Part shown: piece after piece, positions 2,368 through 58,468 of the stretch
How positions within the stretch are numbered: the stretch's first letter is position 1
How the letters are laid out: each line of letters opens with the position of its first letter
Source: a virus
Strand: one strand, 5' to 3'
UHGV virus genome: UHGV-0289908
Length of the DNA stretch: 64,000 nucleotides
Position numbers and translations under genes: made by a program
Notes under the pieces: model-generated
Database searches by the model: none
The model's input: the letters and a program-made list of their open reading frames with translations, nothing else
Told to the model about the DNA's origin: nothing

Positions 2368-2378
2368 ATAATCACTTC

Positions 2379-2546: not shown

Positions 2547-2573
2547 CCTCCTTTTAATTTAAAACAAAGACCC

Positions 2574-2822
2574 TTATTGTTGGGTCTTTGCAAGATATTT
2601 ATTCATGACCTCGTCTGTCCAAACAGACTTTACAATATTCATGTAGTAGTCATCCAAAATTTCTTTTGCATAATCTAAGTATGCGGGATGAGGTTCTAAA
2701 CAACATCCCCAATTATCTTGACCAATTTCCATTCCATCTTTTAGATAGTGTGTGATGACGACCACATTAATGCGACCGTCATCTAATATTTCTAATTTTG
2801 TTTCTTTTTCCTCAGTAAACAT
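2574..2822 (-). CDS. Hypothetical protein (82 aa)
   Basis: ORF from the track. Its stop lies inside a hairpin (AAAGACCC..GGGTCTTT) followed by a T-rich run. No TM segment, so not a holin. Confidence 0.5.
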   Translation of the reverse strand: MFTEEKETKLEILDDGRINVVVITHYLKDGMEIGQDNWGCCLEPHPAYLDYAKEILDDYYMNIVKSVWTDEVMNKYLAKTQQ

Positions 2823-2844
2823 TTTACACTCTCCTTATATTTAT

Positions 2845-15854: not shown

Positions 15855-15932
15855 TTTGCTCCCCTTTCTACAACAAATAGACATAAGGGACAACACAATG
15901 TTTTGTGCTGTCTATATGTCTATTTGCGTTAA

Positions 15933-20162: not shown

Positions 20163-20190
20163 TAAAATAAAAGAGGGGATGACCCCCTCT
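20163..20190 (-). terminator. Hairpin plus U-tract overlapping the TMP stop codon
   Basis: Minus-strand RNA reads AGAGGGG-gtcat-CCCCTCT TTTATTTTAT. The RBS of the next gene follows about 10 nt later. Confidence 0.5.
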
Positions 20191-23100: not shown

Positions 23101-26100
23101 TGTTTGTTAAAGCACTGATTTTGTCATCAACTGTCTGTACCGCCTTTGCAGCTTCGGTCTCTCCGCTGACCACTTTATCAACTTCTGTAGCGAACTTTTC
23201 GAAATTTTTAGCATATTCTTCTAGTGAAACCATCTGCTTGTCTGTTTCCCAACCTGCGTCTAACATTGTCTGGACATTTCCATTCCAATCCAACAGGAAT
23301 AGATAGTGTTCTTGGAACGCTTCCTTTTGAGCGGAAAGGATTTCTTTTAATTTGTCAACCGACAGGTTTTGCCCATTGAACACTCCCATGCCATCTACAG
23401 CATTTGCAATAGCCTTCTCCAATTCTTTGATGTTGCTATCGTTGAGATTTAATTGGTTCAAATACCACTCGTTTGTTCCTTTTAAATCTGATTGTTTATC
23501 TAATTCCTTGTCTAATGCTTTTGCATTTTCAAGAGCCTTTTCTTTATTAATTTGTTTAATTAATCCAAGTTGCTCTTGATAGCTTAGATTTTCATTTTCT
23601 AAAATACTTGCGTACTCATTGTCATATCCAATAAGCTCTTGTTTCAAAGTATTGATTTGACTAGATAATTCAGCTTTTTCCTCTTGTGAAGTATTAATAT
23701 CATTATACTTCTTAATCATTTCATCTAACTTGCTAATTGTCTCTTTAATGTTCCCATTTAATCGACTTTGAATATCAGAAGATAGATTTGAAATGTTTTC
23801 CGTTGCTTCTTTTGCACGACCCGCATAGTCGGTGTAATTTTTAAACCCCTCAATTAATTTCCCTATAACAGTCACCACTGCACTGATTGCAATGGACAAT
23901 CCCATAGACATTGCAGCCTGCAAGGCTACAGTCTTCACTGTGGTTGCAACTAATTGAATTTGACTTGCTTTTAATGTAGTATTAAATCCTTGCAATTTAG
24001 CAGTAAGGTAAGATGTGTCTTTCCCCATTGCCTGCAATTTTTGTATCTTTGTAGTAGTGAGGTCAATGTATGTTTTTTGAGTGTCAATAACTTTCTGATA
24101 TTTGGCAGACTGCAACTGTAGCTCAGTAGTCATACTCTTCATTTGAGGTATCATGCCCATGATATTGTCACGTACAAGTTTTCCTGCGTTATTGAAAGAC
24201 AAGAATCCCATAGTTGATGTTGCTATAACGGTTGGTAGTGCCCCAAACTTATCAATCACTGTTGTTACTCCATTGATGGTTCCAGTGAATCCATCAATCA
24301 TAGACTTGAATCCGTCTGTATTGATAAAAGTTTGAAACAGCTCTTGTTGTGCAGACTTTAAGGTGTTTAATTTCCCTTGTAGGCTATCTGCATAGATACC
24401 ATTCATCTCCATTAATGTTCCTTGAGCGTCATAGGCATTGTTAACGAGCCCTAATGCAGTATCATAACTGTCCATCATACCAATGAAGATATCCATTTGG
24501 TTTTTACCTGCTAATTGCTCTGCCATGTAATATTTGGTACTGTCTGATAGGTTTTTCCACTTTCCTCCAAGTTCGTCCATGATGCTACTAAAACTTTTTA
24601 ATTCTCCAGAGTTGGTGTCACGAATCGTGATACCTAACTGTTTTAAGGCTTTTTCACCCTTTGCAAACTCTAATTCAATGCCCTCTGTAGACTCTCCAAG
24701 CTCTTCTAATGCTTGTTTCTGTTGCATTACACGAGCAGTGATAGTACGCATACCACGACCTAGTTTATCGGCAGACTGTCCAGTTGCAACCATGGCATTA
24801 CCCAACTGTCCAACGAACCATTCCATGTCTACTCCTGCGGCTTTCATAGTAGAACCTGCTACCCCGATACCGTTAACTAAACCTTGTAGACCTTCTTGGA
24901 AGTCCATGTCCATATTGGCAGACACTTTAGAAAGAACGTCTCCAAGGTACTCTGTTACCTCTGCTGCGTTTCTTCCCTCTGCGTCTAACATCTGATATGA
25001 GTTGGCAATAGACATGATAGACTTAGTTACGTCTGTCGCCTGCATACCAGAGATGTTCATTAATGCAGTTGATGGAGCTAACTTAGCCATTACTGCTTCG
25101 ATAGTGGTACTGTCGTTGGCGAATGTTTGAGCAATCTTTAATACATCACTAGATACCGCTCCCATTTCTTTTGACATGGTATTCACTTTGTCTAGCATTG
25201 TATTAAACTGGTTCTTCGTTAATGACTCCATGGTCATGCTCATATTGGTAAATGCTTGGTCTACCTCTTTGATATGAGTAATACCTTTTTTTAACTCATT
25301 CCATAGTCGGCGAATAATCATAGCTCCAGAGACATACGTTGCTAAGTATTTAAAACTTTGACCCAATTCTCCAACTGCCGTGCTCGTTTGTTTTAACTTG
25401 TTGGCTTGAATGTTAGAGTTGATTTCTTTCCACTGTAGCTTTAAATCAGAGATTTGACTTCTCACATCTTTCAATGAAGTCCCATTTAATTGTTTTAACT
25501 TCTGTTGGAATTTCTCAACGGCAACTAAATCTTGAGATGTGATGTATTTGCTATTCTTGTTTAAAGAGTTCTTAACGTCAACCCCCATACTCTTCTGAGT
25601 TCTAGCAATTAATTTTTCAACCTCCGCTTGTTCTTTTTGTGAAGCTGTTAATTGTTTTGCTTTAGAAACCTCAATCTGATTTTCTAAGTCTAATTGTTTT
25701 TGTAGTAGAGTGTTTTCGGTTTGTTGAGTCATTAGACCTTTTTGTTCAATTTCAGCCCTCTTCTGAAATACCGCCAAAGACTGTTCTTCCAGTTGCTTTT
25801 CTAAAACAGCTCTTGCATTGTCGTCGTCCCCGATTTGTTCAAGCTGTTTCTTTGTGGCAAGTCTTCGACTATCTAAGGCAATAAGTTCGTCATTTAGAGT
25901 TTTTTGCTCCGCCTTTTGTTGTGCCGCTCTTAACTCTAAGGCTTGAATTTCTTTAAGTTGAGTTATTTGCTCATTTAACTTGTTGTCACTCAGTCCTCCT
26001 CGGTTAATCGCACCTTGAGCACTATTTCGCAATGATGTTGCAACCGCTTTCTTTTTCTCAAGTACCACTAGGTCTTGCTCGTTTGCATTGACCGATTGCA

Positions 26101-26749
26101 TATTATATTTGTGAATAAGCTCTAAAGACTTTTGAAGTTTTGCATAAGCAGATGTTCTTTTCTTGTCGAGCTTTTCTTCCTCTTTTGTAAGAAGTCTTGC
26201 ATTTTCTAGCTTTTGTTTTTCAATGGTAGAGTTTTGAAGACTACTGTTTGTCAGTCCTTTTGCTTTCAGAGCCTTCTCTTTTTCTCGAATAAGTTTCTGA
26301 GTCTCTTTGACTTCACTAGCGATAGACTCTTGTTTTTTCTTTGAAACCGACACACTCTCAGCTTGCAATTTTCCAACTTTTTCATAAAGTTGTCGGATTT
26401 CCTCATAGCGTGCTTTTTGTACTTTTAACGCTTCTGTGGCAATCTTTGTTTGTTCGACCTGCATTGTTCCATCTTCAAGAACCTTATGTTGGACTGTCAT
26501 AATCTGTCCATATTGATTCATTAATTGAGTGGTCATACTGGTCAATTCATTGTTTTTCCCCATCTTGAAAGATTGGTTGACAAATTTATTAAACTCTTTC
26601 GCCATGTCGTCGAAGTTAATTTTTAATCCTCCAACCTCCATGGTTGTTTTCTTACCAATATCATTGACTGCCTTTTGGACATTCCTAATGGATTGTGCTT
26701 GGTCAACTTCAAGCGTCATATTGACACTTAACGGCTTGTTTCCATCCAT
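20189..26749 (-). CDS. Tail tape measure protein (2186 aa)
   Basis: Very long, highly alpha-helical, coiled-coil, Q/K/E-rich protein between the chaperone genes and Dit. This is the classic TMP position and composition. Confidence 0.85.
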   Translation of the reverse strand: MDGNKPLSVNMTLEVDQAQSIRNVQKAVNDIGKKTTMEVGGLKINFDDMAKEFNKFVNQSFKMGKNNELTSMTTQLMNQYGQIMTVQHKVLEDGTMQVEQTKIATEALKVQKARYEEIRQLYEKVGKLQAESVSVSKKKQESIASEVKETQKLIREKEKALKAKGLTNSSLQNSTIEKQKLENARLLTKEEEKLDKKRTSAYAKLQKSLELIHKYNMQSVNANEQDLVVLEKKKAVATSLRNSAQGAINRGGLSDNKLNEQITQLKEIQALELRAAQQKAEQKTLNDELIALDSRRLATKKQLEQIGDDDNARAVLEKQLEEQSLAVFQKRAEIEQKGLMTQQTENTLLQKQLDLENQIEVSKAKQLTASQKEQAEVEKLIARTQKSMGVDVKNSLNKNSKYITSQDLVAVEKFQQKLKQLNGTSLKDVRSQISDLKLQWKEINSNIQANKLKQTSTAVGELGQSFKYLATYVSGAMIIRRLWNELKKGITHIKEVDQAFTNMSMTMESLTKNQFNTMLDKVNTMSKEMGAVSSDVLKIAQTFANDSTTIEAVMAKLAPSTALMNISGMQATDVTKSIMSIANSYQMLDAEGRNAAEVTEYLGDVLSKVSANMDMDFQEGLQGLVNGIGVAGSTMKAAGVDMEWFVGQLGNAMVATGQSADKLGRGMRTITARVMQQKQALEELGESTEGIELEFAKGEKALKQLGITIRDTNSGELKSFSSIMDELGGKWKNLSDSTKYYMAEQLAGKNQMDIFIGMMDSYDTALGLVNNAYDAQGTLMEMNGIYADSLQGKLNTLKSAQQELFQTFINTDGFKSMIDGFTGTINGVTTVIDKFGALPTVIATSTMGFLSFNNAGKLVRDNIMGMIPQMKSMTTELQLQSAKYQKVIDTQKTYIDLTTTKIQKLQAMGKDTSYLTAKLQGFNTTLKASQIQLVATTVKTVALQAAMSMGLSIAISAVVTVIGKLIEGFKNYTDYAGRAKEATENISNLSSDIQSRLNGNIKETISKLDEMIKKYNDINTSQEEKAELSSQINTLKQELIGYDNEYASILENENLSYQEQLGLIKQINKEKALENAKALDKELDKQSDLKGTNEWYLNQLNLNDSNIKELEKAIANAVDGMGVFNGQNLSVDKLKEILSAQKEAFQEHYLFLLDWNGNVQTMLDAGWETDKQMVSLEEYAKNFEKFATEVDKVVSGETEAAKAVQTVDDKISALTNTFSNLSNEQLKYADTISDIRGTIQELGGDAEAQATVVQRFLGAFPQYEGVVENVSDLLGVLGDKATIELGKAQAQAKNFLETMKDMENYTPDVAEQLIEAYPELAGHIQDTAYVQEFLNDKISEMDNLYGMVMNQVDVHRTAQEEILANDAEFWNEKMKNSENFLQYQRAIENKLISLGAESLGIQYDDFAQYVESKGGLRDVDYSSATSLAEAENMTEAQKLQSMLKMYSQYVNEKDGYRSADSELINEFLNWQGGAEAGTIEELAKMWASFYNAKKKEIQNNLKQLSTAIDKSAGMYQDLGNVSAKDMAEWNKLNAQLRELDRITNSLNSGNLFSDIKTTFKGTGAGTYKGGSLGSSGLNTKPSSGSSSSSSTEKIVEDLDLVIDRYYELNDAIDDVNNALEMNRQLQKMATNVATTKKLHEEEIKLLNEKLEATKKLQLEQRNDMLDHKNLLSTAGFSFDGDGNLTNYSSRLKELQNYANSLSGDAKEAQIAYVNSIVDIIDAYTTLTNDSLPSTELAIEQLIKEIEDVNKEHEKTLKLVEALGDRYYEINGLINDVDKKLALNQAKQENANASERVRLMEEEIALMKEKQDLLRQQSSELQEEAEELAKKLSEKGVEFNADGTVANYKELMDKFKVVANDYVGEYRDEVLDEAEELIDLIKQYDDIIRNTLPDLEVEWEEYTTAIREAEKAMAQQVTDIQKDITSAIQNELQKRTEAVKTELQKQKDAYNKQFDEEDWEDSLTEQQRKLDEIQQAINSMSRDTSLAGKLKLQQLREEYEAQQKVIDDMIRDKEKENGNNRFDEEMEKAEQELEEALDAQNIADLVNKALVDGFVTIGDEIIQLDTLMTDWLNETGDGLYAIGNTLREELIENLRVAQELMAGMGITSVGVSTVDQNTLLKNLEETLNATLTTTSGGNTGQKLDISIGSLVEVQGNVTEDVLPKLESMISTAKEELIEEIASELMKR

Positions 26750-36002: not shown

Positions 36003-37556
36003 CTACCCTCTTTCGTTTCCGTCATTTTCACGGGTTGATTCTCCCGTAGCTGACAAGTCTTCGTCTGCTACCTCTGGTCTTCCATCTTTGTCGTCTGTTA
36101 CCTCTCCATCTCCACTTTGAGTGTATGATGAGTTTAATGGAATCCAGTTGTTGTGTAATTCTAGGATATCGTTTTCTAAGAATGTTAATCCACTAATCTC
36201 TAATGGACTGCTTTGCCCAACGACTGCCGCCATTTGCATTTTTGTTGGTAACCCTAAAGTTGCGGCACTGGTTAATTGAGAAATGACTTCCTCTTTGTTA
36301 TATCCTGTCACATCTAATAGTTTGATTTTAAACATTCCATTGAAGCGACGTTTGAATTTACGGTTTAACCAACGCTCTAATGAGCGGTTAAGTTGGAACA
36401 AGATTGCTTCGTCAGTCTTGATAGAGTATTTTGTAGAAGTAGAGTTGTCTCCACCATTAAATAACATGTCTGTAACACCAATGGTATCATAGAAGTTTTG
36501 CACTGCGTCTTTAACTTTATTCTTGTTATTGTTCGCATCACGGAAACTGATATCTTTTACTGGTAATGGAGTAACAAATGTTCCAATGCTCTCATCAATA
36601 GATTGACGAGCCATGTTGTAGAATTGTAAAGCGGTTGACGCTTTAACTTCAAAGTTGTCTGGCTTCTCTGATTTTCCACTCATACGAGGGATTTCAAATG
36701 CTAATAAGCGATAGTTATTTTGTTCCGTGCTTACTTTCTCCAAGTTTTTATAGTCTTGGATATCAACGACATCTAAAGCCGCTGAAACATAGTAAGGGTA
36801 ACAATAAGGTAAATCCTCTTGTAATTTAAAACAGATAGACTTGTCTGACGGAACTTCTTGCCATTGATACAATGAACTGTCAGACTTGTACTTTGTATAT
36901 CCACTGCGGAAGAATGATGGCACAATCGTTTCATACGTGTTTAATAAAGTTTCTTCGTCATCATCGTTGTCGAAGAATGAGAAGTCAAACTCAAAATTGT
37001 AGCAAGCATCCTCTACAGATGAAATACGACAATAGTCTGGGTTTAATTGTTTAATGTAATATGAACTGTTTTTCTCGTCTTCGTACTCAATTCCATAGAA
37101 AACATCTTCTCGGAAGCAAGTTCTCTTGACTTTAACAAATTCATGTGGTATACTTAACATATCGAGATAAGCAACTGCTTTATGATAGTTCTTAGCAATA
37201 TTCTCACGATTCGTTTCAAACTTATCTACTTGAGCAGGAACAATGATGGGGCAATCAATTCCGATACTCGGTAAATAGTTAACAATACGCTTATACATAA
37301 AGCTAGTGTTTTCCAAATAGCGAGATAGTTCTCGAAGTTGTTTTTCATAATCTTGAGGAGAAGACAGATACGAAGTGATTGCGTCTCGGTCATACTCTCC
37401 GACTTTGCTAATGATTGAGTCACTTACTCGTCGGTCGTGGCGAAGTCCAAGATTCATAGACTTCATTGCACGAGCAAATTCCATCATGAACAATTCTTGT
37501 TCGGCTTGTTCTTGAGCCTGTTCTTGAAGAATTTTCTCAGTCATATCAGTAGACAT
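36003..37556 (-). CDS. Portal protein (517 aa)
   Basis: Immediately downstream of the large terminase. Size and the acidic C-terminal tail (GDGEVTDDKDGRPEVADEDL) are typical of siphovirus portals. Confidence 0.65.
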   Translation of the reverse strand: MSTDMTEKILQEQAQEQAEQELFMMEFARAMKSMNLGLRHDRRVSDSIISKVGEYDRDAITSYLSSPQDYEKQLRELSRYLENTSFMYKRIVNYLPSIGIDCPIIVPAQVDKFETNRENIAKNYHKAVAYLDMLSIPHEFVKVKRTCFREDVFYGIEYEDEKNSSYYIKQLNPDYCRISSVEDACYNFEFDFSFFDNDDDEETLLNTYETIVPSFFRSGYTKYKSDSSLYQWQEVPSDKSICFKLQEDLPYCYPYYVSAALDVVDIQDYKNLEKVSTEQNNYRLLAFEIPRMSGKSEKPDNFEVKASTALQFYNMARQSIDESIGTFVTPLPVKDISFRDANNNKNKVKDAVQNFYDTIGVTDMLFNGGDNSTSTKYSIKTDEAILFQLNRSLERWLNRKFKRRFNGMFKIKLLDVTGYNKEEVISQLTSAATLGLPTKMQMAAVVGQSSPLEISGLTFLENDILELHNNWIPLNSSYTQSGDGEVTDDKDGRPEVADEDLSATGESTRENDGNERG

Positions 37557-37570
37557 CTGTCCACCTCCTG

Positions 37571-40500
37571 TTATCTAATCTTAGGGCTAGAGAAGCAGTA
37601 TAGAGAAGCAATGTTAAAGTCTTCTTCCTCTTCTTTTGCCTTATTTTCGTGTGTCATAATATACCAAATCATATAGACAAGTGCCGAGTAACGGTCTTTG
37701 TCAATCGACTTGGAATTACGTTTTACCGTCAGCTTCCCTCCATTTAGCTGTTCAAGACTTAAGTTAGCTATCTCTTCGATAAGTAGCTCTGTCTGAACAT
37801 GAGGGAGCACTGTGCTCTTTAAGAAGTCTTGGTCTGAGTTGGCAACTACGTTCTGGTCTACTTTCTCAAGTAGCTGTAGCGTTCCATTCTCAACTAAGTT
37901 CATAAAGTTAACAATAATGTCAGTATTCAGACCTTGAGCCTGTAAAGCCCAAACACATTTTAATGCTTCTGCTTCGTCTGACTCATGTTCTGTATTGATT
38001 GTGTCGAACGCAATTAACTCTTCACCTGTTATCGGGTCAATGTGAAGTTTCATTATCTCGTCAAGTAGTCCTACGCCTAATCCGTTAATATCTATGACAA
38101 CGGTTACAGCTTTGTATAGCTTCTGTAGTCGCTTAACTGCAATGGCTTGCCCAGTGAAGTTTGTGCCGTTAGGCAGGTTGACAATGTTGACAATCTGAAT
38201 ATGATTAACCTTGTCTTTTTTATCTCGTTTAACCTTACCTACTACAATAGAGGTCTGGTTGTTGTTCGTCTTTGTAGAGCGAGCCACATCGACTCCAATA
38301 TAGTATTCGCTCTTCCCGTCAGACTTTAGCTCTGCCTTTGGAAGAGTTCGGATGTTGAATAGCTTATTTAAGTCGATGATACATGAGTCGGACGAGCCCA
38401 CCCAACGGGATTCGTAGTTAGTTGCGAAGAATGTCGGAGATAGTTTCTCCTTCTTGGCAAGTAACTGTGAACGTGTCTCTCCACGTCCATACTCGCAGGC
38501 AAGCTCCCAAGAGCTACCCAATACAATTTTACCTTTTAACTCTGCCATCTCTTTGACCATTGCTAAACAACGCTCATACTCAGTGTTCTTGAAGTATGCT
38601 GTTGTTAAGAAGTGGATTTGACCATTCATTTCACAAGGGTCTACTTGCGGATTGTAACCAATAGTACGACGAGGTACGTTGACGATTGGTTCAAGGGCAT
38701 CAGAGAAGACGAAGTCGTTAAGTAAGGCAGCCTCTTCCATCATCAAACGATGGCGACGCTTACCCTTACTTGACTGTGCATTGGCAAGAGTGCTGATAGT
38801 ACTTCCACTTGTGAAGTGAATCTCGGCATTATCTTTTGAGAATTGTGGCTTACCTACAATCTCCGCTCCGATAAGAGGGAAGAATCGCACAATCTCACTG
38901 TGTTTCTCTTCAACTAATCCTGCGGCTGCTTGCATGGTCTGAGCCGACATAGATAGGTTGATATTTGGATAGAGAATAGCTGTTACATAGAGTGCTAACA
39001 ACTCTGTAAATGTATTGTGACTAACTAATCCATTTGACACAAATGAATGAGTGTTGTCTAATGACAAGTCATACACATGAGCCTTAGAATCTTTAATGGT
39101 CTTAATCTTTGAATAGAAGTAATTTTCACACTGCAAAGATTTAAAATGCTCACAGTGTTTTGCTTCATGAAAGCGTTCATGATTTAACATTTGGTTTAAT
39201 TTTTTATAAGTGAATAAACCACCTTTGTTTGCCACTTGATATAGAGGATGACTTGATTTATTAACATTCTCCCCTATTGATTCATAGAACTCTCTAATCT
39301 TAGACTGCTGATTTGGAATAATGTCTTTTATGGTTCTTCCTTGATACTCTTTGCAGCGTTGTTCTAACAATTCTTGTTTTCTTTGACAAGAGAATCCTAT
39401 TTCATCTCTGAATTTTAGTATGTTACTTCCCGTGATGGTAATAATGTAAGATTTCGTTTGATACTGTTTGCTTATCTTTGTTCGTCTGTTTGAAATAATT
39501 CCCAAGTTCAACAATAGTGTTTGAACCTGTTTAGACATTTTTTCAGAAGCTGTGCAGAATGAAACAGCTCTGCTCTCCACTCCACCGTCTGTATCAAATA
39601 ATCCTTGCAAACATTTCACCACATATTTTTTCGGTGCTTCTAAAATAATGTTGGGGATAACCTTGGTAAAGGCATCTGACTGCGACAAACCAAGTTGTCT
39701 AAAGTATTCACGAACATATTTGCCGTTGACGACATAATCTATGCCTGTTTTACGCTGTTTAACCTCTACTCCTATGACATTGTTCATAAAAGAGTGGTAG
39801 CGTTCCACCATATCTTGGTCTTTTGATGTAAAGAGGATGATGTTATCTCTTGTCAAGCAGCCATCTCCTAAAAGATAGCCAATTATCAGAGCTAAGTCCT
39901 CAGTTAATTCCGTCGGAGTGTTGCATTTGTTTTTTTCAATTTTCCATTTAGAGTCTCCACCAAAAGAATTTAACCACGAGTGCATATCAAAAGTCAATTT
40001 GGTTCTGCTACCCCAAACATTATCTCCTCGGCTTGTGATTAAATAATCTCCGACATGTAAATCCTCTGTTCGTTTCCAGTCAATATTTCCATCTGTTGTC
40101 ATAACTAGCACGGGGTGGTTTAACGAAGGTTCAATTTCAATACCTTCCTCGGTATATATTTTCTTTGTGTCCTTATATCCACTATACACCCCTGCAATGA
40201 CATTCTCCATCTGTTTATGACGATTGCTCACTGTCATTTGTTTAGGAATTATGTATGTTTCAACATTATCATCTTGATAATTAAAGTACGACCCAATCTC
40301 TTTAACTCCCTCGTTTGTTAAAATTAATGTATCGCCAGATACACATTTTCCATATCCACGTGGGAATACCCCGTAGACAGAAGCGAAACGGACTAGAACA
40401 CGAATGAACACTCGTTGGTCTAAGTCGAGTCGGATACCCCCTGTCTCGGGCGTAATTAGGTCGAGAAAGAGGTCGGGGAAAAAGCGAGCCCACGAAATGA

Positions 40501-40621
40501 ACTCTACCCATTTATCTAAATTCTGTTGAAATTTATCTCCATCTGGGTTAGAATAATATGGTATCCCAGTTTTTGGATTGATTACTTTTTCAATAATCTG
40601 CTTGGCTTCTTCTTTATTCAT
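37571..40621 (-). CDS. Terminase large subunit precursor (1016 aa) containing a 444-aa intein
   Basis: Exteins join to give the P-loop FPRGYGK|TFTELL (Walker A GxGKT). Nuclease-domain-like C-terminal half. 572 aa once the intein is removed. Confidence 0.8.
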   Translation of the reverse strand: MNKEEAKQIIEKVINPKTGIPYYSNPDGDKFQQNLDKWVEFISWARFFPDLFLDLITPETGGIRLDLDQRVFIRVLVRFASVYGVFPRGYGKCVSGDTLILTNEGVKEIGSYFNYQDDNVETYIIPKQMTVSNRHKQMENVIAGVYSGYKDTKKIYTEEGIEIEPSLNHPVLVMTTDGNIDWKRTEDLHVGDYLITSRGDNVWGSRTKLTFDMHSWLNSFGGDSKWKIEKNKCNTPTELTEDLALIIGYLLGDGCLTRDNIILFTSKDQDMVERYHSFMNNVIGVEVKQRKTGIDYVVNGKYVREYFRQLGLSQSDAFTKVIPNIILEAPKKYVVKCLQGLFDTDGGVESRAVSFCTASEKMSKQVQTLLLNLGIISNRRTKISKQYQTKSYIITITGSNILKFRDEIGFSCQRKQELLEQRCKEYQGRTIKDIIPNQQSKIREFYESIGENVNKSSHPLYQVANKGGLFTYKKLNQMLNHERFHEAKHCEHFKSLQCENYFYSKIKTIKDSKAHVYDLSLDNTHSFVSNGLVSHNTFTELLALYVTAILYPNINLSMSAQTMQAAAGLVEEKHSEIVRFFPLIGAEIVGKPQFSKDNAEIHFTSGSTISTLANAQSSKGKRRHRLMMEEAALLNDFVFSDALEPIVNVPRRTIGYNPQVDPCEMNGQIHFLTTAYFKNTEYERCLAMVKEMAELKGKIVLGSSWELACEYGRGETRSQLLAKKEKLSPTFFATNYESRWVGSSDSCIIDLNKLFNIRTLPKAELKSDGKSEYYIGVDVARSTKTNNNQTSIVVGKVKRDKKDKVNHIQIVNIVNLPNGTNFTGQAIAVKRLQKLYKAVTVVIDINGLGVGLLDEIMKLHIDPITGEELIAFDTINTEHESDEAEALKCVWALQAQGLNTDIIVNFMNLVENGTLQLLEKVDQNVVANSDQDFLKSTVLPHVQTELLIEEIANLSLEQLNGGKLTVKRNSKSIDKDRYSALVYMIWYIMTHENKAKEEEEDFNIASLYCFSSPKIR
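39014..40345 (-). mobile_element. Intein with a LAGLIDADG homing-endonuclease domain, inserted in the terminase P-loop
   Basis: Begins Cys (CVSGDTLILTNEG, block A) immediately after GYGK. Ends ..VSHN followed by Thr. LAGLIDADG blocks LLGDGCL and LFDTDGGV. Codon boundaries were verified on the DNA (TGT at 40343-40345, CAC AAT then ACA at 39011-39019). Confidence 0.8.
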
Positions 40622-41592
40622 TATAAGTCCTCACTTTCTGACTCTGTGTCTTGTGAGCGACTATAATCAGCTTTACGTTGTTCTAAGAAGTCATAAATTT
40701 CAGAATATTCGCAGTCTGGCAAGTTTTGCATTTTGCGAATGTAGTTGATATAACACCACAGAGTAAAGTCTACCTTATCCTGTGGTTTCTCAATGAACCG
40801 AGGTAGGATAGGGATAACATCAACCGCCTGTTCAACGGCACGTGTTAATTCTCCGAACCCACTAAGCCCCGATGTTAGGTCGTTCTTAGATAACTGACTC
40901 GGGTTGATACGAGCCGAAGTTGCCTGTTTCTGAGCTGCGTCTGCCCATTTTGACGCTTCTTTAAGGTCTCCTCTAGCAGTTGCAAACTCTTCTTTCACAC
41001 GGAAACGACAATATGTAATTAATGCTTCCGTATGTAGAGCTGTATACTCTGGATAGCTTGCTCGTAACTGATTGTATTTTCGGTCAATGGCAATAAGCTC
41101 TTCATCTGTATAACCGAATCCATAAGTCTCTGTAAACTTATAGCGTCGCTCTGGTGACAATTTGTATACATCTGTACGCTCCACTGCTTTGTCATTCATT
41201 AACTTTTCTTCACTTTCGGTAAACATACTATCATCCCAAGTGAAGTCTCGGTACTGGTGCATGGCAATGTCTTTCCAGTACTTCCCGATGATGGCACGTG
41301 GCTCATCATATTTGTTTGCATTTGTTACAAACACATGGTGAATATAAGGTCTGTCTAGTTGCTGTAATGTGCGTTTTAGATTGTCCATATCAATGGCACT
41401 CTTTTCTTCGTTAAGACACTTTTCAACTACACAAGCCTTACAGTATGGCATAAGCCCAGAAGCGGACTTAAAGCTCTTATAGAACTCTGTAGTACGCTTC
41501 TCAGTATTACATTCTGTGCATGTAATCTTTTTAATCTCTGGCTTTTCTTTTTTGGGCACTTTAATAGTACTTAAATCTTTTTTCCGAGACAT
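40621..41592 (-). CDS. Putative terminase small subunit / zinc-ribbon DNA-binding protein (323 aa)
   Basis: Directly upstream of TerL and overlapping it. N-terminal CxxC-x21-CxxC. Confidence 0.4.
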   Translation of the reverse strand: MSRKKDLSTIKVPKKEKPEIKKITCTECNTEKRTTEFYKSFKSASGLMPYCKACVVEKCLNEEKSAIDMDNLKRTLQQLDRPYIHHVFVTNANKYDEPRAIIGKYWKDIAMHQYRDFTWDDSMFTESEEKLMNDKAVERTDVYKLSPERRYKFTETYGFGYTDEELIAIDRKYNQLRASYPEYTALHTEALITYCRFRVKEEFATARGDLKEASKWADAAQKQATSARINPSQLSKNDLTSGLSGFGELTRAVEQAVDVIPILPRFIEKPQDKVDFTLWCYINYIRKMQNLPDCEYSEIYDFLEQRKADYSRSQDTESESEDL

Positions 41593-43094: not shown

Positions 43095-43969
43095 TTAAAA
43101 TCACTCCTCTTAAAATCAAAGTCTCAAAACCATCTACCTTAAAGCAGATAAACAGTTTTGAGACTAGGAAGTCTCTATTGTGCAACACCTTGAGCTTCTT
43201 CTACCCTTAAGGCATTGTCTTATTGGTTTGGACAATCAAGCCCATTTCATGTATACTTCCAAGAAATCAATCTTGAAAGGCTAGTTGACGTTGCGTCTTC
43301 CGTTGAGCTTTATTTATTTTACCATTGTCACGCTCTATGACAACAAAGTGTGACTTGTTCCACTATTCTTTATTTTAAGCTAGTCTTAATGGCATAGACT
43401 AGAATCATTATAGGAAACAATGGGTAGTAACACAAACTTAATCGCCCTACCACCCATCCAAAACACTAGGTTTTATAGTTTACAATGGCTTCAACTTTTA
43501 ATTTGTTCCGACACTAGATAAATGTGAGTTGACAACACAATCGGGATTCTTCCCTCGCCAACATGGAGAACTTGTTCCATTAAGACTATTTCAAGTGTCA
43601 CACAATTACAACATAGCCCTCTGTGAGTAAGCACAAGTAGTGTGGTTATTGTAACTTAACGTGCCTGTGGATAATGACCTAGGACGGCTTGACAGTGGTT
43701 GCGACCCTCGTCTGACAAGTCTTACACTCCCTATGTCCAATAAACAACTACGCTAGCTTAATCGCCCGTAGGTTCTGCGTGTACAGTTAGAACACCTCAC
43801 GACTACAGTAGTTATATTTTCTGTCGCACTCTGCAAGCGACTGTCTAGCCCATATGTCTAGCATTAATGATGACAATAAGACTATGGATTGTCGCTATAC
43901 ACGTAGGTCATCACCCCTACGTATGCTCCCCTCTAGCCAAAAGCATGGTGGTCTAATGACCATGTTAAT

Positions 43970-44046
43970 TGGGGTTTCCTGTTGGATTCGAACCAACGAT
44001 AGCTCGGTTATGAGCCGAGAGCTTTGACCGACTAAGCTAAGGAAAC
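43970..44046 (-). tRNA. tRNA-Met (anticodon CAT; could be an initiator, elongator or lysidine-Ile type), CCA encoded
   Basis: Hand-folded reverse complement: acceptor GTTTCCT/AGGAAAC, D stem GCTT/AAGC, anticodon stem CTCGG/CCGAG with loop CTCATAA, T arm GTTGG-TTCGAAT-CCAAC, then C-CCA. Confidence 0.75.
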
Positions 44047-45098: not shown

Positions 45099-45172
45099 TG
45101 GTGCTCCTACTCAGAATTGAACTGAGATTTCATCATTACCATTGATGTGTTCTGCCATTGAACTATAAGAGC
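45099..45172 (-). tRNA. tRNA-Thr (anticodon GGT), CCA encoded
   Basis: Reverse complement: acceptor GCTCTTA/TAGGAGC, D stem GTTC/GAAC, anticodon stem CATCA/TGATG with loop ATGGTAA, T arm CTCAG-TTCAATT-CTGAG, then A-CCA. Confidence 0.7.
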
Positions 45173-45218: not shown

Positions 45219-45310
45219 TGGCGGACAGGGTGGAATTCGAATCCACGCACGACTAAAAGCCGTCTAATGCCTTAGCAGGGCACCCTCTTAAGCCACTTGA
45301 GTACCTATCC
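45219..45310 (-). tRNA. tRNA-Ser (anticodon GCT), class II with a long variable arm, CCA encoded
   Basis: Reverse complement: acceptor GGATAGG/CCTGTCC (one G-U pair), anticodon stem GTGCC/GGCAT with loop CTGCTAA, ~20-nt variable arm, T arm GTGGA-TTCGAAT-TCCAC, then G-CCA. Confidence 0.65.
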
Positions 45311-45417: not shown

Positions 45418-46524
45418 CTAGTAGTTCATTCCTTCAACAGAATAATTATACTCGTCTAAGAACGTATTCAAGTCATCAAGTGAAGATGGCACTGCCACTG
45501 CTCCACACTTGACCTGTTCCATTGCTTCGTCAACTTTTGTGATGGTATCTTCTGTTAAGTTTGGATTTTCCACTGGTAATCCAACACCATCCGCTTTGAT
45601 ATCCATTACAATCGTTTCTCCACCTTTGAAAGTGTTGTTTGCATGGTTTTCCACATGCTCATATGAAGCTCGTCCTAAATTCTTCATGGCAGATGTCAAG
45701 ATGACCGAACTACCATTGGAAATCAATCCTTCTGAATATTGGTCGATGTCAACTCCAACAATGTAAACGCTATCTCCAGACTCTGCTCGGCTCTTTGCTT
45801 CATTAATAGCTCCAACTCCGACTCCACCTGCTGCTTGCATGATAATGTCTGCTCCTTTATCATACATTGCTCCTGCAATAGCCTTTCCTGCGTCTACATC
45901 TGTGAATGTACCTTGATATAAATAGTCAATCACTTCAACATCTGTTCCGTAGATTGCATTGGCATAAGCCACACCTGCTACAAATCCCCATCCTAATTTT
46001 TGAACCGCAGGAACTTTCATTCCTCCAATGAATCCAACTTTGCCCGTTTGTGATTGTAAAGCTGACGCAACTCCCGTTAAGAAGCCTGCTTCATGTTCTG
46101 TGAAGAATACTGAGACGACATTGTCTCCAACTTCATAGTCCGACCCCACTAATGGAGTTCCATCAATCAATACAAAGTTGATGTCTGGGTAAATGGCTTG
46201 GGCTTGCCCTATGGCTTCTTCAAACTTGAATCCTGCCACAACAATGACCTCATTGCCTGCCATTACCAGATTATCAATGGCATTCATATAGTCTTGAGTT
46301 GACTCTCCGCTTGGTTGGATATATTGAATTTCTACGTTCTCATTATCTGCTTGATATTCCAATATTCCTTCCCAAGTCCCTTGGTTGAATGATTTGTCAT
46401 CAATAGTTCCAGAATCTGTAACCATCCCAACTTTTAATGTTGACTCAGATGGGGCAATCTCTTTTTTGCTACAACCGATTAGTGTGAATGCACACACTGC
46501 CAATAATAGTGTAAACTTTTTCAT
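45418..46524 (-). CDS. BMP-family (PnrA/TmpC/Med-like) nucleoside-binding lipoprotein, 368 aa from the corrected start
   Basis: Track ORF 45418..46569. A strong RBS GAGGAGGAAG lies 8 nt before the ATG at 46524. Signal peptide MKKFTLLLAVCAFTLIGC with lipobox LIGC. N-terminus KVGMVTDSGTIDDKSFNQGTWEGI matches the BMP-family signature. Confidence 0.75.
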   Translation of the reverse strand: MKKFTLLLAVCAFTLIGCSKKEIAPSESTLKVGMVTDSGTIDDKSFNQGTWEGILEYQADNENVEIQYIQPSGESTQDYMNAIDNLVMAGNEVIVVAGFKFEEAIGQAQAIYPDINFVLIDGTPLVGSDYEVGDNVVSVFFTEHEAGFLTGVASALQSQTGKVGFIGGMKVPAVQKLGWGFVAGVAYANAIYGTDVEVIDYLYQGTFTDVDAGKAIAGAMYDKGADIIMQAAGGVGVGAINEAKSRAESGDSVYIVGVDIDQYSEGLISNGSSVILTSAMKNLGRASYEHVENHANNTFKGGETIVMDIKADGVGLPVENPNLTEDTITKVDEAMEQVKCGAVAVPSSLDDLNTFLDEYNYSVEGMNY

Positions 46525-46543
46525 GGGTGTTCTTCCTCCTCGT

Positions 46544-46765
46544 TTACATAAAGCAGTCGTCAGTTGCAACTTCTTCGTCTAAATCTTTCTCAGCTTTTGC
46601 TTGGAATGATAATACTCCGTGTTTGTTATCAGCGTTTGCTAATAAATCTTGGATGAAGCAAACTCCTTCATCTTCTGTTTCGATTGTCATGTCGTCAACA
46701 TTTAAAGTCCCAGTGACTTTGATGGTATGAGTTTCGACAATCTTTTCTTGAATTGATTTTGCCAT
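46544..46765 (-). CDS. Hypothetical acidic protein (73 aa)
   Basis: ORF from the track. Overlaps only the spurious N-terminal extension of the lipoprotein ORF. Confidence 0.4.
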   Translation of the reverse strand: MAKSIQEKIVETHTIKVTGTLNVDDMTIETEDEGVCFIQDLLANADNKHGVLSFQAKAEKDLDEEVATDDCFM

Positions 46766-48067: not shown

Positions 48068-50821
48068 CTACTCTTCCTCCTTGAAATGCTTTGACCGTTT
48101 TGTGTGCATAGTAAATGTCATTCCTTTAAATTCAAATTCCCCTGTTGCTGACTGAATTGGATATGAGATTTGCCCTTGGTTTCTTTTCAGTAAGTTTTTA
48201 ATAATCTGTTCTCCGCACACATTCCATACGACATATTTTGACTTGTTTGAAGAATAACAAATATCAATCATAATATTGCATAAAGTTTCCTCATTGGTGC
48301 ATACTACAAGCAGGTCATTTTTAAATCTCTCTGTTAAGCGATTTTCAATGTCTGCTCGTTCATTTGAGGACATCTTCTGTTTAACCGATGTCTGATAGAA
48401 CTTCTTAAGGTCGTCAATGTACTGCTCGTACAATGCAGCAACCTTCTTAGCCATACTACGTTTGTATTCAACATTAGGCGATTTCAGAATTTCTTTGTCG
48501 AACTCTGTCTTGCGTGTGTCGAGCTTGACTTGCTGAAACACCTCTTCAACGTGCCAACAGATTTTGTTCATCAGACAAGCTGTCTCGTCTATAGGAAGTT
48601 GCTTTTTGAAGAAGTGAAGAGATTTTTCTTCCTCTTCTGTTCTGTCTGTTGACGCAATGATTTCGTCCATTGACTTCTTGAACTTGCGTCGGCAACGAAT
48701 GTTCTCACTCTTCACATAATCCATGTAATCCTTGCGTAGCTTTGGATAGATGTAAGTGAAGAAATATGGTTTTTTATCTGCCACTAATTGACGATTAAAC
48801 TCTTTAAAAGCGACTACCTCTTCCGAGTCTGTGTCCGAAGGCATTAAAGGTTGATAGCTTATCCATGACTTAGGAATCCCACCAGAGGTTTCAATCCCTT
48901 TTGCTACGTCAATACTTTCTTGACTGTGTAGAATGGAAGACATAATTCGATAATCCAACTCTTCCCATTCTGGAGTCCCAAAGTCAAATCTCGCTTGAAT
49001 ACTTTGAATACATGTTGCCTTGTTTGTAATAACTCCAACATTCTCTGTCTTGCTTGCGAGCAATAACTTGTCAGAACGAATGTAGTCTTCTTCTGAACAC
49101 ATTTGCTTTTGAGCACTCTTTTGAAGGCAAATAACTGGCAAGGTGTCTCTTATCCCTTTCATAATGTATTCATTGTTTGTAATGAAAACGGTATCACCAT
49201 CACAGTCCATCCCCGATAGTCTAGGACATGTTGCGTCATAGGCATTTAGAACGTACAGCTCCCCAATGTGCTGATACCATTTTGCCATCTCTTCTGTGCA
49301 AACAATTTCAGCCTTACCAATGTTGTTATGAGAGACCATAGGTGCTCGGAACATCCCAACCTCTGACACTCCTTTGTCCACCCAGAATTTAGAATAAAAT
49401 TGTCCAGATTTTAATAACCCTTTCACTTCCATTCCAAACATGTTCTCTGCCAAACATATAGGGTCAATAGTTACCGTTTGGTAATTTCCTTGTACTTTGA
49501 TTTTCCCAATCTTGGTTTCGTCAATTCGTTTCTTTATCATGTTGTTGATAGATGTTCTAACATAAGGGTCGTTGATTAACTCTGGCTCAATCATAAGAGC
49601 ACTAGCGTAATCATATGTATTGATATCTGTATTTTCAGACATCCCAATTCCTTTTAAGTATGCTAAAGATTTTCTAGGGTCTAGCCCTTTTACCTCAATT
49701 ATCTCATCTATCGTCGGTTGAATAAGAGCATATATCTCTTCATCTGTTAAATCTAAAGACTGAATGAACTGATAGTTGGTATCTCGAACCTCGTCCAATA
49801 CCTTTGGAGTTTGCTTTGTGACACTAAATGTGTATTTGTTTTCTACACAACATCTATGATAGTGCTCCCATGAATCATAACTGTCCCACAACTTGAGCAT
49901 TGAGGTTGTGATTACTAGGTCAACATCATCAACATTCCACTCTTTATCCCAAACATCTACAATGACCTCTTTGTTCGCTTTCTCTTTTGCAAACATCTTA
50001 AAGTCGAACACTAGGGCTACTCCTTTTAAGAAAGAATTCCTAATAATAAAACCGCTCGGAGTGTAATCTAGGTGCAGGTCTTTAGCCCAAACCTTCGCAA
50101 ATTCGGGAGAGATAAAACCAGAGCCGTCGCTCGCATTTAGATTCATTTCATAATCTTCAATAACTCGCTTGTGTGGTCGTCCATCTGTTACTTCTCCTAA
50201 TTCGATAACGCTTGTTTTGAAATTCGTTTCCACATCGTGTACAATACAAACGTTAGGGGTGTCGGTTACTGGGTTACTAGCACTCATTGTTAAGCTACGA
50301 TAGGCACTTAATTTTGCAGGAACAAATTCTTTGTCATTACGACCATTGTCAATGCGTCTTTGTAATTCGTCTAAAATGGTTTCGTCCGCATAGAACACTT
50401 CTCCCTTTTTAATTGAAGCAGGAGTGGATAGGAAACGTTTGTATCGTGTTCCATTTATCACAAATCCTCGGTTAATTAAATCATAGTGTTTTGATTTATC
50501 AATCTTGACACACACAAGATACTTCAAGAACAATATTTTGTCCAACTCTTGTTTCAGCGAAACGTATCTTTTACTATTGGCTTTATTATGCCCTTCCTGT
50601 GTTAAGTGAAAAATCTCTCTTTTGAGTTGTTGAACACGCTCTTCTTCATATCCCGTCTTGGCAATGTCGTCAATACTTCTAATAACATACGAAGAAGCAA
50701 GTCCAACAATCCACCCTTCCTCTAATAGTTCGTCCATTTCAAGTTTTAAAGACATGTTAGAGTCAACAATCTCAGTGCTTGGAATTTTTATAATTTTTCT
50801 TATTGAATATAGGTTGCTCAC
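48068..50821 (-). CDS. Single-chain two-barrel (YonO/QDE-1-like) RNA polymerase homologue (917 aa)
   Basis: Beta-prime-type DPBB signature: FRAPMVSH at residues 491-498, then 40 residues later MDCDGD (DxDGD) at 538-543, compared with NRAPTLHR...NADFDGD of multisubunit beta-prime. An upstream beta-type barrel candidate RNSFLKGV (residues 261-268) compares with RHGNKGV. Confidence 0.6.
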   Translation of the reverse strand: MSNLYSIRKIIKIPSTEIVDSNMSLKLEMDELLEEGWIVGLASSYVIRSIDDIAKTGYEEERVQQLKREIFHLTQEGHNKANSKRYVSLKQELDKILFLKYLVCVKIDKSKHYDLINRGFVINGTRYKRFLSTPASIKKGEVFYADETILDELQRRIDNGRNDKEFVPAKLSAYRSLTMSASNPVTDTPNVCIVHDVETNFKTSVIELGEVTDGRPHKRVIEDYEMNLNASDGSGFISPEFAKVWAKDLHLDYTPSGFIIRNSFLKGVALVFDFKMFAKEKANKEVIVDVWDKEWNVDDVDLVITTSMLKLWDSYDSWEHYHRCCVENKYTFSVTKQTPKVLDEVRDTNYQFIQSLDLTDEEIYALIQPTIDEIIEVKGLDPRKSLAYLKGIGMSENTDINTYDYASALMIEPELINDPYVRTSINNMIKKRIDETKIGKIKVQGNYQTVTIDPICLAENMFGMEVKGLLKSGQFYSKFWVDKGVSEVGMFRAPMVSHNNIGKAEIVCTEEMAKWYQHIGELYVLNAYDATCPRLSGMDCDGDTVFITNNEYIMKGIRDTLPVICLQKSAQKQMCSEEDYIRSDKLLLASKTENVGVITNKATCIQSIQARFDFGTPEWEELDYRIMSSILHSQESIDVAKGIETSGGIPKSWISYQPLMPSDTDSEEVVAFKEFNRQLVADKKPYFFTYIYPKLRKDYMDYVKSENIRCRRKFKKSMDEIIASTDRTEEEEKSLHFFKKQLPIDETACLMNKICWHVEEVFQQVKLDTRKTEFDKEILKSPNVEYKRSMAKKVAALYEQYIDDLKKFYQTSVKQKMSSNERADIENRLTERFKNDLLVVCTNEETLCNIMIDICYSSNKSKYVVWNVCGEQIIKNLLKRNQGQISYPIQSATGEFEFKGMTFTMHTKRSKHFKEEE

Positions 50822-51645
50822 TATTTTTTCATCTCCTTTTTCACTCTCTCTTGTACTCCATTTGCCTTTTGATAATACCGCTGTGCCTGTTCTTTGAATT
50901 TGGAAGGAGATTGCTTTTTACGAGAATGAGGTTGACGCTTCTCAAGAAGTCTCATGCAATAACTCGACACATCTTCAATCTCGTTGTTAACAAACTCTTT
51001 TTTCAATGACTCTGCACGGTCGCTTATCAAAGCATTTAAGCATGAACACCATTCGGTGGCGAAGAGCTGTCCTTGATTAAGGATTAAGATACGCTCACTT
51101 ACGTGTTCAACGATTCTTTTGAGCTCTGCTTTTGCAGTACTTGGAATCAAAGGGTCAATCTGTGTTATCATGGTTTTAATCTCCTTATGTCCTAATTGTT
51201 CCTTGTTCGATTCCTCAATCATTCGTTTTATTTCACACAGTCCTATAAACAACTGTAATTGTCGTCGTATGTCTTTTTCGATTTGATTTTGGGTTCTTCG
51301 CTCTTCTGAAACTGAATGGTTGTTTCCTCCAAGTTGAACATTATAGCCCTTGTTGTTGTTGGTTGAGTCGTAATACTCTATCCAGAATTTTTCCTTTTCG
51401 TTTAATTCCGCAACTGTTAGTCCACGGTCAATTATTTCAACAATGAAGTTTTCCGCTCCGTATTTTCTAATGGAGTTTGCTAGGTATAGGTTTACTTTTG
51501 GAGAATTTGCGATTCTCTCCACTCCCACTCCTTTCCCACAATATCTTTTATTGAAGGTCTTTTGGGTTTGTCCTATGTACACTTTTCCGTTTACTTGATT
51601 TGTAACCTTGTATATAATCATGGTTTCCGTTTCAAGTGCTTTCAT
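50821..51645 (-). CDS. GIY-YIG homing endonuclease (about 274 aa from the corrected start)
   Basis: Track ORF 50821..51714. The likely start is the ATG at 51645, after AAGGAG. Motif MIIYKVTNQVNGKVYIGQT...NKRY...YGAENFIVEII...N matches the GIY-YIG catalytic core. The C-terminal half is helical (a likely DNA-binding module). Confidence 0.7.
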   Translation of the reverse strand: MKALETETMIIYKVTNQVNGKVYIGQTQKTFNKRYCGKGVGVERIANSPKVNLYLANSIRKYGAENFIVEIIDRGLTVAELNEKEKFWIEYYDSTNNNKGYNVQLGGNNHSVSEERRTQNQIEKDIRRQLQLFIGLCEIKRMIEESNKEQLGHKEIKTMITQIDPLIPSTAKAELKRIVEHVSERILILNQGQLFATEWCSCLNALISDRAESLKKEFVNNEIEDVSSYCMRLLEKRQPHSRKKQSPSKFKEQAQRYYQKANGVQERVKKEMKK

Positions 51646-51662
51646 CTCTCTACTCCTTTGTC

Positions 51663-51917
51663 TTATCCAATAAAAATAATTTTCACTTCTTCTCCTGTAA
51701 TACGACAGTAACAATCTGCTACTCGACCCGAATCACGGATGAAATCAACAATCGACTCTGTTAATTCTTCAACGTATTCAATCTTGTCTTTTTTTTCGTC
51801 CCCAAATCCTAAGAAGCGGTTCGGGGTAAAATACATACAACCATACCCCACTCTCGTTTGTACCTTGAACTCTTTTCCTACCATGGACGCTAAAACCATA
51901 CTGTCTAGCTTAGTCAT
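51663..51917 (-). CDS. Hypothetical protein (84 aa)
   Basis: ORF from the track. Confidence 0.4.
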   Translation of the reverse strand: MTKLDSMVLASMVGKEFKVQTRVGYGCMYFTPNRFLGFGDEKKDKIEYVEELTESIVDFIRDSGRVADCYCRITGEEVKIIFIG

Positions 51918-58351: not shown

Positions 58352-58468
58352 AAAATAGTCGTGTGGGCGACTTAAAAAAGGCACTTAAGCCCACAGCGTC
58401 CACCCGTTGCGGGTGGGGTGTGCACTTGAAAAAAGTGTGTAAAATATGAATTTTATGGAGGTATTACA

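Follow-up and report, generated by a model that had tools for sequence, protein, structure and literature searches.

The 64,000-nucleotide (nt) stretch of virus genome UHGV-0289908 analysed herein, referred to as the window, raises the question of how a phage might package its DNA when the gene of its large terminase subunit, terL, encodes an ATP-binding P-loop interrupted by 444 additional amino acids. The original prediction, made from the letters of the window and a list of its open reading frames (ORFs), had placed this insert at 39014-40345 inside a terminase ORF of 1016 amino acids, and the placement turned out to be exact to the base. It is very probable that the insert is a bifunctional class 1 intein, in which the splicing (HINT) domain is split by a LAGLIDADG endonuclease, and which sits in the Walker A motif of TerL and both splices and homes. 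This reading is carried by established results, namely the anatomy of the insert, its fold, its conservation, the purifying selection acting on it, an exact intein-less counterpart of the gene, the co-conversion tracts around the insertion point and the youth of the intein.

Anatomy of the Insert and Its Splicing Motifs

The 444-residue insert comprises precursor residues 93-536, whose codons occupy exactly 39014..40345 on the minus strand. Its parts are as follows.

39014..40345, minus strand: intein, 444 amino acids, 1332 nt, Cys1 to His443-Asn444 (from translation, Pfam, the AlphaFold2 (AF2) model and the intein-minus allele)
39956..40345, minus strand: HINT N-terminal half, intein residues 1-130, with block A (Cys1) and block B SLNH (His77; 40106-40135)
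39341..39955, minus strand: LAGLIDADG endonuclease domain, residues 131-335, with motif 1 LIIGYLLGDG (39860-39889, Asp161) and motif 2 CLQGLFDTDG (39584-39613, Asp253)
39131..39340, minus strand: helical region, residues 336-405, between the endonuclease and the C-terminal splicing blocks, the most variable part
39014..39130, minus strand: HINT C-terminal half, residues 406-444, with block F (VYDLSLDNTHSF) and block G (NGLVSHN)

Residue 1 of the intein opens CVSGDTLILTNEG, LLGDGCL begins at 158 and LFDTDGGV at 249, while HN occupies 443-444 and is followed by Thr+1, the first residue of the C-extein; Cys1, block A, the terminal HN, Thr+1 and the two endonuclease blocks are thus all present where they had been quoted. 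Block B is formed by S74-L-N-H77 (the T/SxxH pattern), block F reads VYD426LSLDNTH433SF, and block G ends in SH443N444. The residues of blocks F and G beyond the terminal HN, whose absence had been named as grounds for giving up the intein, are present (D426 and H433). In the endonuclease part, both catalytic aspartates at motif position 8, D161 and D253, are kept. The Pfam search of the precursor returned Intein_splicing at E 2.4e-16 (residues 100-536) and LAGLIDADG_3 at E 5.3e-20, far beyond chance, and the insert alone gave Intein_splicing at E 4.7e-17 (residues 8-444) and LAGLIDADG_3 at 3e-20 in two stretches. The identification as a LAGLIDADG intein consequently stands, and the insert has the canonical make-up of class 1 inteins together with a homing endonuclease of the two-motif LAGLIDADG type. 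It contains nine cysteines, Cys1 included, and has a G+C content of 35.4% vs 42.2% for the extein. The helical region 336-405 may conceivably take part in DNA binding.

The insertion lies exactly between Walker A Lys92 and Thr93 (GYGK|C...HN|T), and the intein-less target site has the sequence TTCCCACGTGGATATGGTAAG|ACTTTTACAGAACTTCTTGCA. Translation without the 444 residues gives a TerL of 572 amino acids with the junction GVFPRGYGK|TFTELLALY. The restored terminase P-loop that had been foreseen on removal of residues 93-536 was thereby confirmed, the product being 100% identical to a natural protein, P0001. The Walker A threonine would accordingly serve a double role, as a residue of the P-loop and as the +1 splice nucleophile.

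Fold, Family and Selection

The AF2 model of the intein, built from the family alignment, has a predicted local distance difference test score (pLDDT) of 93.6 and a predicted template modelling score (pTM) of 0.93, with helices at 347-407. The top Foldseek match of this model is the TliVMA intein 7qss (E 6e-27, TM 0.70), and further intein matches comprise PI-PfuI (1dq3), PhoVMA, PI-TkoII and PI-SceI. The HINT part also matches the mini-inteins 1am2, 4oz6 and 5o9j, while the central part matches I-DmoI, I-Tsp061I and I-WcaI (TMt 0.52-0.71, with I-DmoI at about 0.7), in agreement with the pseudo-dimeric alpha-beta-beta-alpha-beta-beta-alpha core of monomeric LAGLIDADG enzymes.

A set of 33 related inteins was gathered from a search of 5.8 billion proteins, together with the record of Psychrobacillus phage Perkons and P0058 from the first search. 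Almost all of them (32/33) share the YonF-like terminase site ...RGxxK|C....HN|T/S, and the remaining one, P0152, occupies the equivalent site GTGK|C...HN|T in a PhoH-like P-loop ATPase. Cys1, His77, Asp426, His443 and Asn444 are invariant in 33/33, His433 is found in 26/33, position 74 of block B is Ser in 17 and Thr in 16, and the +1 residue is Thr or Ser throughout. The catalytic residues of the endonuclease are kept less strictly, D161 in 27/33 and D253 in 26/33. In several relatives the endonuclease is mostly lost or a catalytic Asp is gone (P0058, 268 amino acids; P0143, 289 amino acids; P0141-P0151, about 370-380 amino acids), which is the pattern expected from the homing cycle.

The intein was further compared with its two nearest non-identical relatives (79% and 74% identity; DNA in contigs L012 and L013). 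Across the splicing and endonuclease parts, the proportion of nonsynonymous differences (pN) is 0.09-0.13 vs 0.67-0.94 for synonymous differences (pS), at which the synonymous sites are saturated. Against L012, for instance, the N-terminal HINT half has pN 0.09 and pS 0.68; for the endonuclease part, pN is 0.12 and pS 0.94. Low pN against saturated pS in both parts indicates that the splicing and the endonuclease activities have each been under purifying selection. Identity falls to 24-71% in region 336-405, vs 79-83% in the HINT parts.

Intein-Free Alleles and Mobility

Every base of the window matches a 154,609-bp contig assembled from a human gut metagenome (ERZ919609), and the phage belongs to the SPbeta-like phages of the human gut, with a genome of roughly 130-155 kb. 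The reads behind the window are those of ERR414459, and the intein-minus samples include SRR11413611 and SRR9333256. P0001, the 572-residue protein that equals the predicted splice product, was found on 14 independent public contigs, which derive from other samples and reach 148 kb; the intein-plus contigs number five vs these 14 intein-free contigs with an identical extein. The intein-plus precursor or variants at least 99% identical to it form a 25-member cluster, which includes the 153,891- and 154,609-bp contigs and derives from different samples.

In 5/8 of the fetched assemblies (L003, L004, L007, L009 and L010), the intein-less gene differs from the DNA of the window by the lack of exactly 1332 nt and by 15 substitutions in the extein, all of them synonymous. 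All 15 fall within -3 to +63 nt of the insertion point, and the other 1652 of the 1719 nt contain none; the chance that 15 random differences would fall in one 67-nt span is about 3e-19. The cluster is a co-conversion tract, the two sides of which are located as follows.

38951..39013, minus strand: C-side co-conversion tract, 13 synonymous differences, +3 to +63 nt
40346..40349, minus strand: N-side co-conversion markers, the third bases of Gly91 and Lys92, GGA AAA here vs GGT AAG in the intein-minus L003-L010

The explanation of these differences as sequencing or assembly noise was considered and rejected, since eight independent assemblies share the identical intein-minus tract and all the changes are synonymous. 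The 10-kb flanks on either side are about 99% identical between intein-plus and intein-minus genomes.

A second intein-plus background, L019, differs from the window at 153/1719 nt of the extein and at 6/1332 nt of the intein (Fisher p 1e-31), so that the intein is about 20 times less diverged than the extein around it, and it is much younger than its host gene. The intein-linked flank markers of L019 span only 0 to +3, which limits the exchanged flank to less than 12 nt vs 67 nt in the window. Both intein-plus alleles carry the junction codons AAA|intein|ACA, while AAG|ACT is found in every intein-minus allele of the close population (L003-L010, L020 and L021) and AAA|ACT in the more distant intein-minus L014. 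A close intein-minus counterpart exists for each intein-plus background, at a distance of 0, 1, 3 or 5 amino acids.

The disparity between 6/1332 intein and 153/1719 TerL differences, combined with the shorter tract of L019, implies that the intein moved at least twice. The pattern is consistent with break-repair homing accompanied by co-conversion on at least two occasions, in which the direction of transfer and the part played by the endonuclease are deduced from the alleles, and the intein appears to have been spreading recently among sibling phages. The original claim of a selfish homing element thus gained support from plus and minus alleles in phages about 99% identical, from the co-conversion tracts and from the low divergence of the intein, on the premise that the endonuclease is active. 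In the databases searched for a donor, the nearest non-self intein outside its own cluster of at least 90% identity is P0121, at 79%, which places the immediate donor of the 67-nt tract outside those databases.

The Host Gene and Its Product

The terL gene and its neighbours are arranged as follows.

37571..40621, minus strand: TerL precursor ORF, 1016 amino acids, stop codon included (ORF list)
40346..40621, minus strand: N-extein, residues 1-92, whose last six residues are PRGYGK of Walker A (40346-40363; translation)
37571..39013, minus strand: C-extein from Thr+1 (39011-39013), holding Walker B RLMMEEA (38729-38749) and an RNaseH-like nuclease domain
40621..41592, minus strand: YonG-like gene, 323 amino acids, with an N-terminal zinc ribbon, its stop overlapping the terL start (phrog_3314 6.9e-50; PF27269 YonG_N)
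36003..37556, minus strand: portal protein gene, directly downstream of terL (phrog_2739, 3.5e-100)

The host protein is a YonF-like large terminase of an SPbeta-like phage. Spliced TerL matches phrog_2, 'terminase large subunit', at 1.3e-16 in the PHROG search and shares 41% identity with the uninterrupted YonF-type proteins of SPbeta and SPR and 48% with the Perkons terminase. The SPbeta and SPR homologues run without interruption through the insertion point, where SPR reads GGSKT and P0001 reads GYGKT. With the YonG-like gene on one side of terL and the portal gene on the other, the module is of the YonJ/YonG/YonF/YonD/YonB/YomU type, in which YonJ-like and YonG-like genes lie upstream of terL and the portal gene and the YonD, YonB and YomU homologues downstream. 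The YonG-like gene is a candidate for the small terminase subunit (TerS), by analogy with its homologue in Perkons, ORF210, which was proposed as TerS (PMC13245101).

Among 31 TerL homologues, P87, R88, G89, K92, T93, E185 and E186 are invariant, and the PRGYGKT and RLMMEEA motifs are invariant or nearly so. A weak hhalign alignment with T4 gp17 (E 0.026) is collinear and pairs DQR with YQR, PRGYGKT with SRQLGKT and RLMMEEA with MIYIDE. In published T4 work, the three gp17 motifs are the adenine-binding, Walker A and Walker B motifs. This motif register implies that the intein parts the Walker A lysine from the Walker A threonine.

The AF2 model of spliced TerL is of moderate quality (pLDDT 69); residues 186-299, in the ATPase, are poorly predicted and residues 300-550 reach pLDDT 80-93, and the model was not used to place the P-loop in three dimensions. 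By Foldseek it matches T4 gp17 (3cpe, E 1.3e-10) and the gp17 ATPase domain (2o0h, 1.8e-3), and its nuclease domain matches the G20c TerL nuclease (TMt 0.74), RB49 gp17 and the terminase nucleases of human cytomegalovirus and herpes simplex virus (5m1f, 3c6a, 6ey7). The Pfam terminase models stayed below threshold on spliced TerL (Terminase_6N E 0.15, Terminase_6C E 0.18), and a family-wide scan fared no better, so that the terminase identity rests on PHROGs, synteny, fold and motif register. A profile of the TerL family searched against the sequences of the PDB retrieved no solved terminase; its weak hit to the FANCM helicase, at Walker A (E 0.29), was left out of the evidence.

A megablast search with the whole terL region as query gave no matches among 50,697 phage records, and searches worked at the protein level alone, which points to a phage without a close cultured relative. 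Spliced TerL found one relative each in GTDB genomes and IMG/VR, at about 51-52% identity. In JGI/IMG, this terminase and many of its homologues, including intein-less ones of about 576 amino acids, bear the label 'ribonucleoside-diphosphate reductase alpha chain', which is probably an annotation error spread from intein-containing entries of ribonucleotide reductase (RNR).

Intron-Like Inserts in Sibling terL Genes

The terL genes of siblings L022 and L023, 98-99% identical to that of the window, contain the same intein together with two inserts of about 375-380 nt. In L022 these lie at 2672-3005 and 4761-5086, the first after WAR(F/W) and the second directly ahead of Walker B, between KGKRRH and RLMMEE. 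Their matches to the Rfam family Intron_gpI stay below its gathering score of 50, at 32 and 48.7 bits (E 1.5e-5 and 1.5e-10). The distant relatives L012 (5730-6045 and 8009-8203) and L013 have inserts at the same two positions of terL, and the terL of the window has neither. Expression of TerL in L022 and L023 would need two RNA splicings and one protein splicing. The occurrence of the intein and of intron-like inserts across the siblings marks terL as a hotspot for self-splicing elements in this phage group. L012 shows, at about 7750-7880, a direct repeat of some 60 nt from the end of exon 2 (…AGTGGTAGCACAATTTCAACATTAGCCAATGCCCAG…GGGTAAGCGAAGACACAGT); the copies differ by a few changes, and the repeat lies immediately ahead of the second insert, where it may reflect either faulty assembly or a true duplication at the insertion site.

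Proposed Mechanism and Alternative Explanations

By analogy with established intein and terminase biochemistry, from which the splicing chemistry, the DNA cleavage and the dependence of packaging are all drawn, the following course is proposed. The 1016-residue precursor would be made with a broken P-loop, and an N-S acyl shift at Cys1 would yield a thioester that is attacked by Thr+1. Cyclisation of Asn444, presumably helped by His443 and His433, would release the intein, and an O-N shift would complete a TerL of 572 amino acids with an intact ATP-binding loop. Since this loop would arise only via splicing, packaging would in turn need splicing. The freed intein is predicted to act as a site-specific endonuclease on the intein-less terL of co-infecting or resident relatives, whereupon repair of the break from the intein-plus copy would copy in the intein together with short stretches of flanking extein DNA.

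Several points weigh against this account. Splicing and DNA cleavage are here predictions read from the sequence. The Walker A assignment leans on a weak similarity to solved terminases (hhalign E 0.026; Pfam Terminase_6N E 0.15), and the ATPase part of the TerL model is poorly predicted. The change may have been a gain of the intein or its precise loss. Compared at the 15 tract sites, further intein-plus alleles side with the window only moderately more often than with the intein-minus one (8 vs 5 and 9 vs 2), and for Perkons the balance is reversed (3 vs 8). Moreover, when phages co-infect a cell, general homologous recombination might transfer the intein with no endonuclease activity involved.

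This last point leads to an unlikely alternative, namely that the intein splices but its endonuclease is inactive, the plus/minus and mosaic pattern having been produced by ordinary recombination and vertical inheritance. General recombination is indeed frequent, as evidenced by mosaic terL alleles such as that of L019, whose 5' part matches L021 and whose 3' part matches L020, and relatives that lost a catalytic Asp or the endonuclease domain demonstrate that decay does occur in the family. The copy in the window, however, keeps both catalytic aspartates within a confidently folded double LAGLIDADG core, and the endonuclease part has a pN of 0.12 against saturated pS. The exchanged flanks, moreover, are very short (67 nt and less than 12 nt) and centred on the insertion point in two backgrounds, as break repair at a homing site predicts. 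It is scarcely credible that the insert is a dead, non-splicing remnant, which would leave TerL inactive in a defective prophage or in a phage that uses another terminase. A case for such a remnant could be built on the precursor as written, which cannot bind ATP, and on splicing being a prediction from the sequence. Yet the splicing residues are all intact, and the present analysis counts them invariant across the 33 relatives; the HINT halves are under strong purifying selection, the precursor and its near-identical variants recur across samples in the 25-member cluster, and no second terminase-like ORF was seen beside the portal gene.

The bifunctional, homing intein also has to be set against readings in which the element does something for the phage. 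It is highly unlikely that the intein has been kept, whatever its mobility, as a conditional switch, in which redox state, temperature or another host cue gates splicing and times packaging. The P-loop position, which renders the precursor fully inactive until it is spliced, the nine cysteines of the intein with Cys1 among them, and the regulatory roles proposed for P-loop inteins in the literature (PMC5050341) would suit such a switch. The sequence indicates no sensor, however, and the distribution in the population is the one typical of a selfish element; alleles that have the identical extein and lack the intein are no rarer (14 vs 5 contigs), which implies that the phage does well without the intein. 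An unlikely but broader possibility is that the intein and the group I intron-like elements of the siblings act as a weapon and a barrier in competition between phages, or that splicing is conditional and gates packaging. As a weapon, the endonuclease would attack terL, an essential gene, in intein-less relatives that infect the same cell, so as to exclude the packaging gene of these relatives or force them to convert, and recombination boundaries would be set thereby in the gut phage population. If either held true, the fitness of phages in the human gut would be determined in part by a selfish element.

Comparison with Known Systems

Among mycobacteriophage proteins, TerL harbours inteins most often, at seven insertion sites that all fall within the ATPase domain, and insertion between the P-loop Lys and Thr is regarded as the 'classic' site (Kelley, Lennon, Belfort & Novikova 2016, mBio; PMC5050341). 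In the same work, five TerL inteins (sites b, c, e, f and g) were found to splice and two of them (b and c) to cut intein-less alleles, and TerL1-a was absent from the inteins assayed (PMC5050341). The intein of the window resembles mycobacteriophage TerL1-a in that its host is the ATPase of a large terminase whose active site would be formed by splicing. It differs in that the actinophage proteins belong to Pfam terminase_1 and have hosts among the Actinobacteria, whereas the present one is YonF-like and T4 gp17-like and comes from a Firmicutes-type gut phage, and no close sequence relationship is detectable between the two.

The terminase intein of Perkons (MT325768, ORF209) is a true allelic counterpart, with the site GVFPRGFGK|C...SHN|T and the same architecture. 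It has 442 amino acids vs 444 here; the inteins are 49% and the exteins 48% identical, and in both phages the genes follow the order YonG-like, TerL, portal. Perkons, in contrast, is about 50% diverged and is a phage of an Antarctic soil Bacillaceae. The paper describing it, published in 2026, records an intein/homing-endonuclease conserved-domain hit at residues 101-557 of the terminase and contains no splice-site, homing or population analysis of its intein (PMC13245101).

In structure, the archaeal VMA/PolI-type inteins (TliVMA 7qss, PI-PfuI 1dq3) and PI-SceI (1vde) likewise carry a double LAGLIDADG endonuclease within their HINT domain (Foldseek E 6e-27 to 1e-12), and TliVMA also lies in the P-loop region of an ATPase; unlike the present intein, they reside in other host proteins of another domain of life, at 12-21% sequence identity. 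Group I introns have been documented in the terminase genes of Bacillus prophages, and introns and an intein accumulate in the RNR genes of SPbeta (PMC2504315). There, an essential gene of an SPbeta-type phage has gathered several self-splicing elements, as terL has in the siblings, although the host gene is RNR rather than the terminase and the terL of the window carries the intein only. What is novel in this case is the terminase family and the phage lineage, the logic of the site and the architecture being already known.

Implications

For annotation, the gene should be named a terminase with a predicted mature product of 572 amino acids, and not a 'ribonucleoside-diphosphate reductase alpha chain'. 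A Firmicutes-type, SPbeta-like gut lineage hereby joins the phages in which an intein splits the P-loop of the packaging ATPase. A natural experiment of unusual clarity is available in the public metagenomes, comprising isogenic intein-plus and intein-minus phages, two tract lengths and siblings with two intron-like elements; with this material, the homing of the intein and its effects on fitness could be measured in a natural population of phages. Together with its target of roughly 40 bp, the intein constitutes a candidate new LAGLIDADG specificity. The knowledge of how inteins work is left unchanged, and a specialist would not be surprised.

Other Elements in the Window and in Sibling Genomes

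A tblastn search for a second intein in the window gave only a chance-level match (E 2.1), in the ORF 53058-54128, in which Pfam found no intein or HINT domain. Free-standing GIY-YIG-like genes vary among the siblings. The intein-minus contigs L003-L006 have at 2167-3255 a SegE-like ORF of 362 amino acids upstream of the HU gene, and L019 has at 995-1948 a GIY-YIG+NUMOD3 ORF of 317 amino acids flanked by the YonJ-like and YonG-like genes. The window lacks both of these ORFs; its own GIY-YIG ORF, at 50821-51714 on the minus strand, is weak (E 7.6e-4). By megablast, contigs of the L003 type no longer match the window upstream of about 47234.

A full-length match to the Pistol self-cleaving ribozyme (RF02679) occurs at 58357-58423 on the plus strand, with 60.8 bits vs a gathering score of 34.5 (E 1.8e-8). 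Three transfer RNA genes, at 43973-44046, 45102-45172 and 45222-45310, all on the minus strand, are situated upstream of the packaging module, and the same strand gave a borderline match to the Rfam family '6A RNA' at 43298-43348 (42.5 bits vs a gathering score of 41.2). The minus strand also encodes, at 45418-46569, a Bmp/PnrA-like substrate-binding lipoprotein of an ATP-binding cassette transporter (PF02608, E 1.3e-68), the gene of which is retained by every sibling contig and may have an auxiliary role or serve in interaction with the host. Downstream, the structural module contains four giant ORFs, all on the minus strand, at 2845-10764, 20189-26749, 11916-15896 and 15933-19349 (2639, 2186, 1326 and 1138 amino acids), which presumably encode tape-measure, tail-fibre or baseplate proteins.

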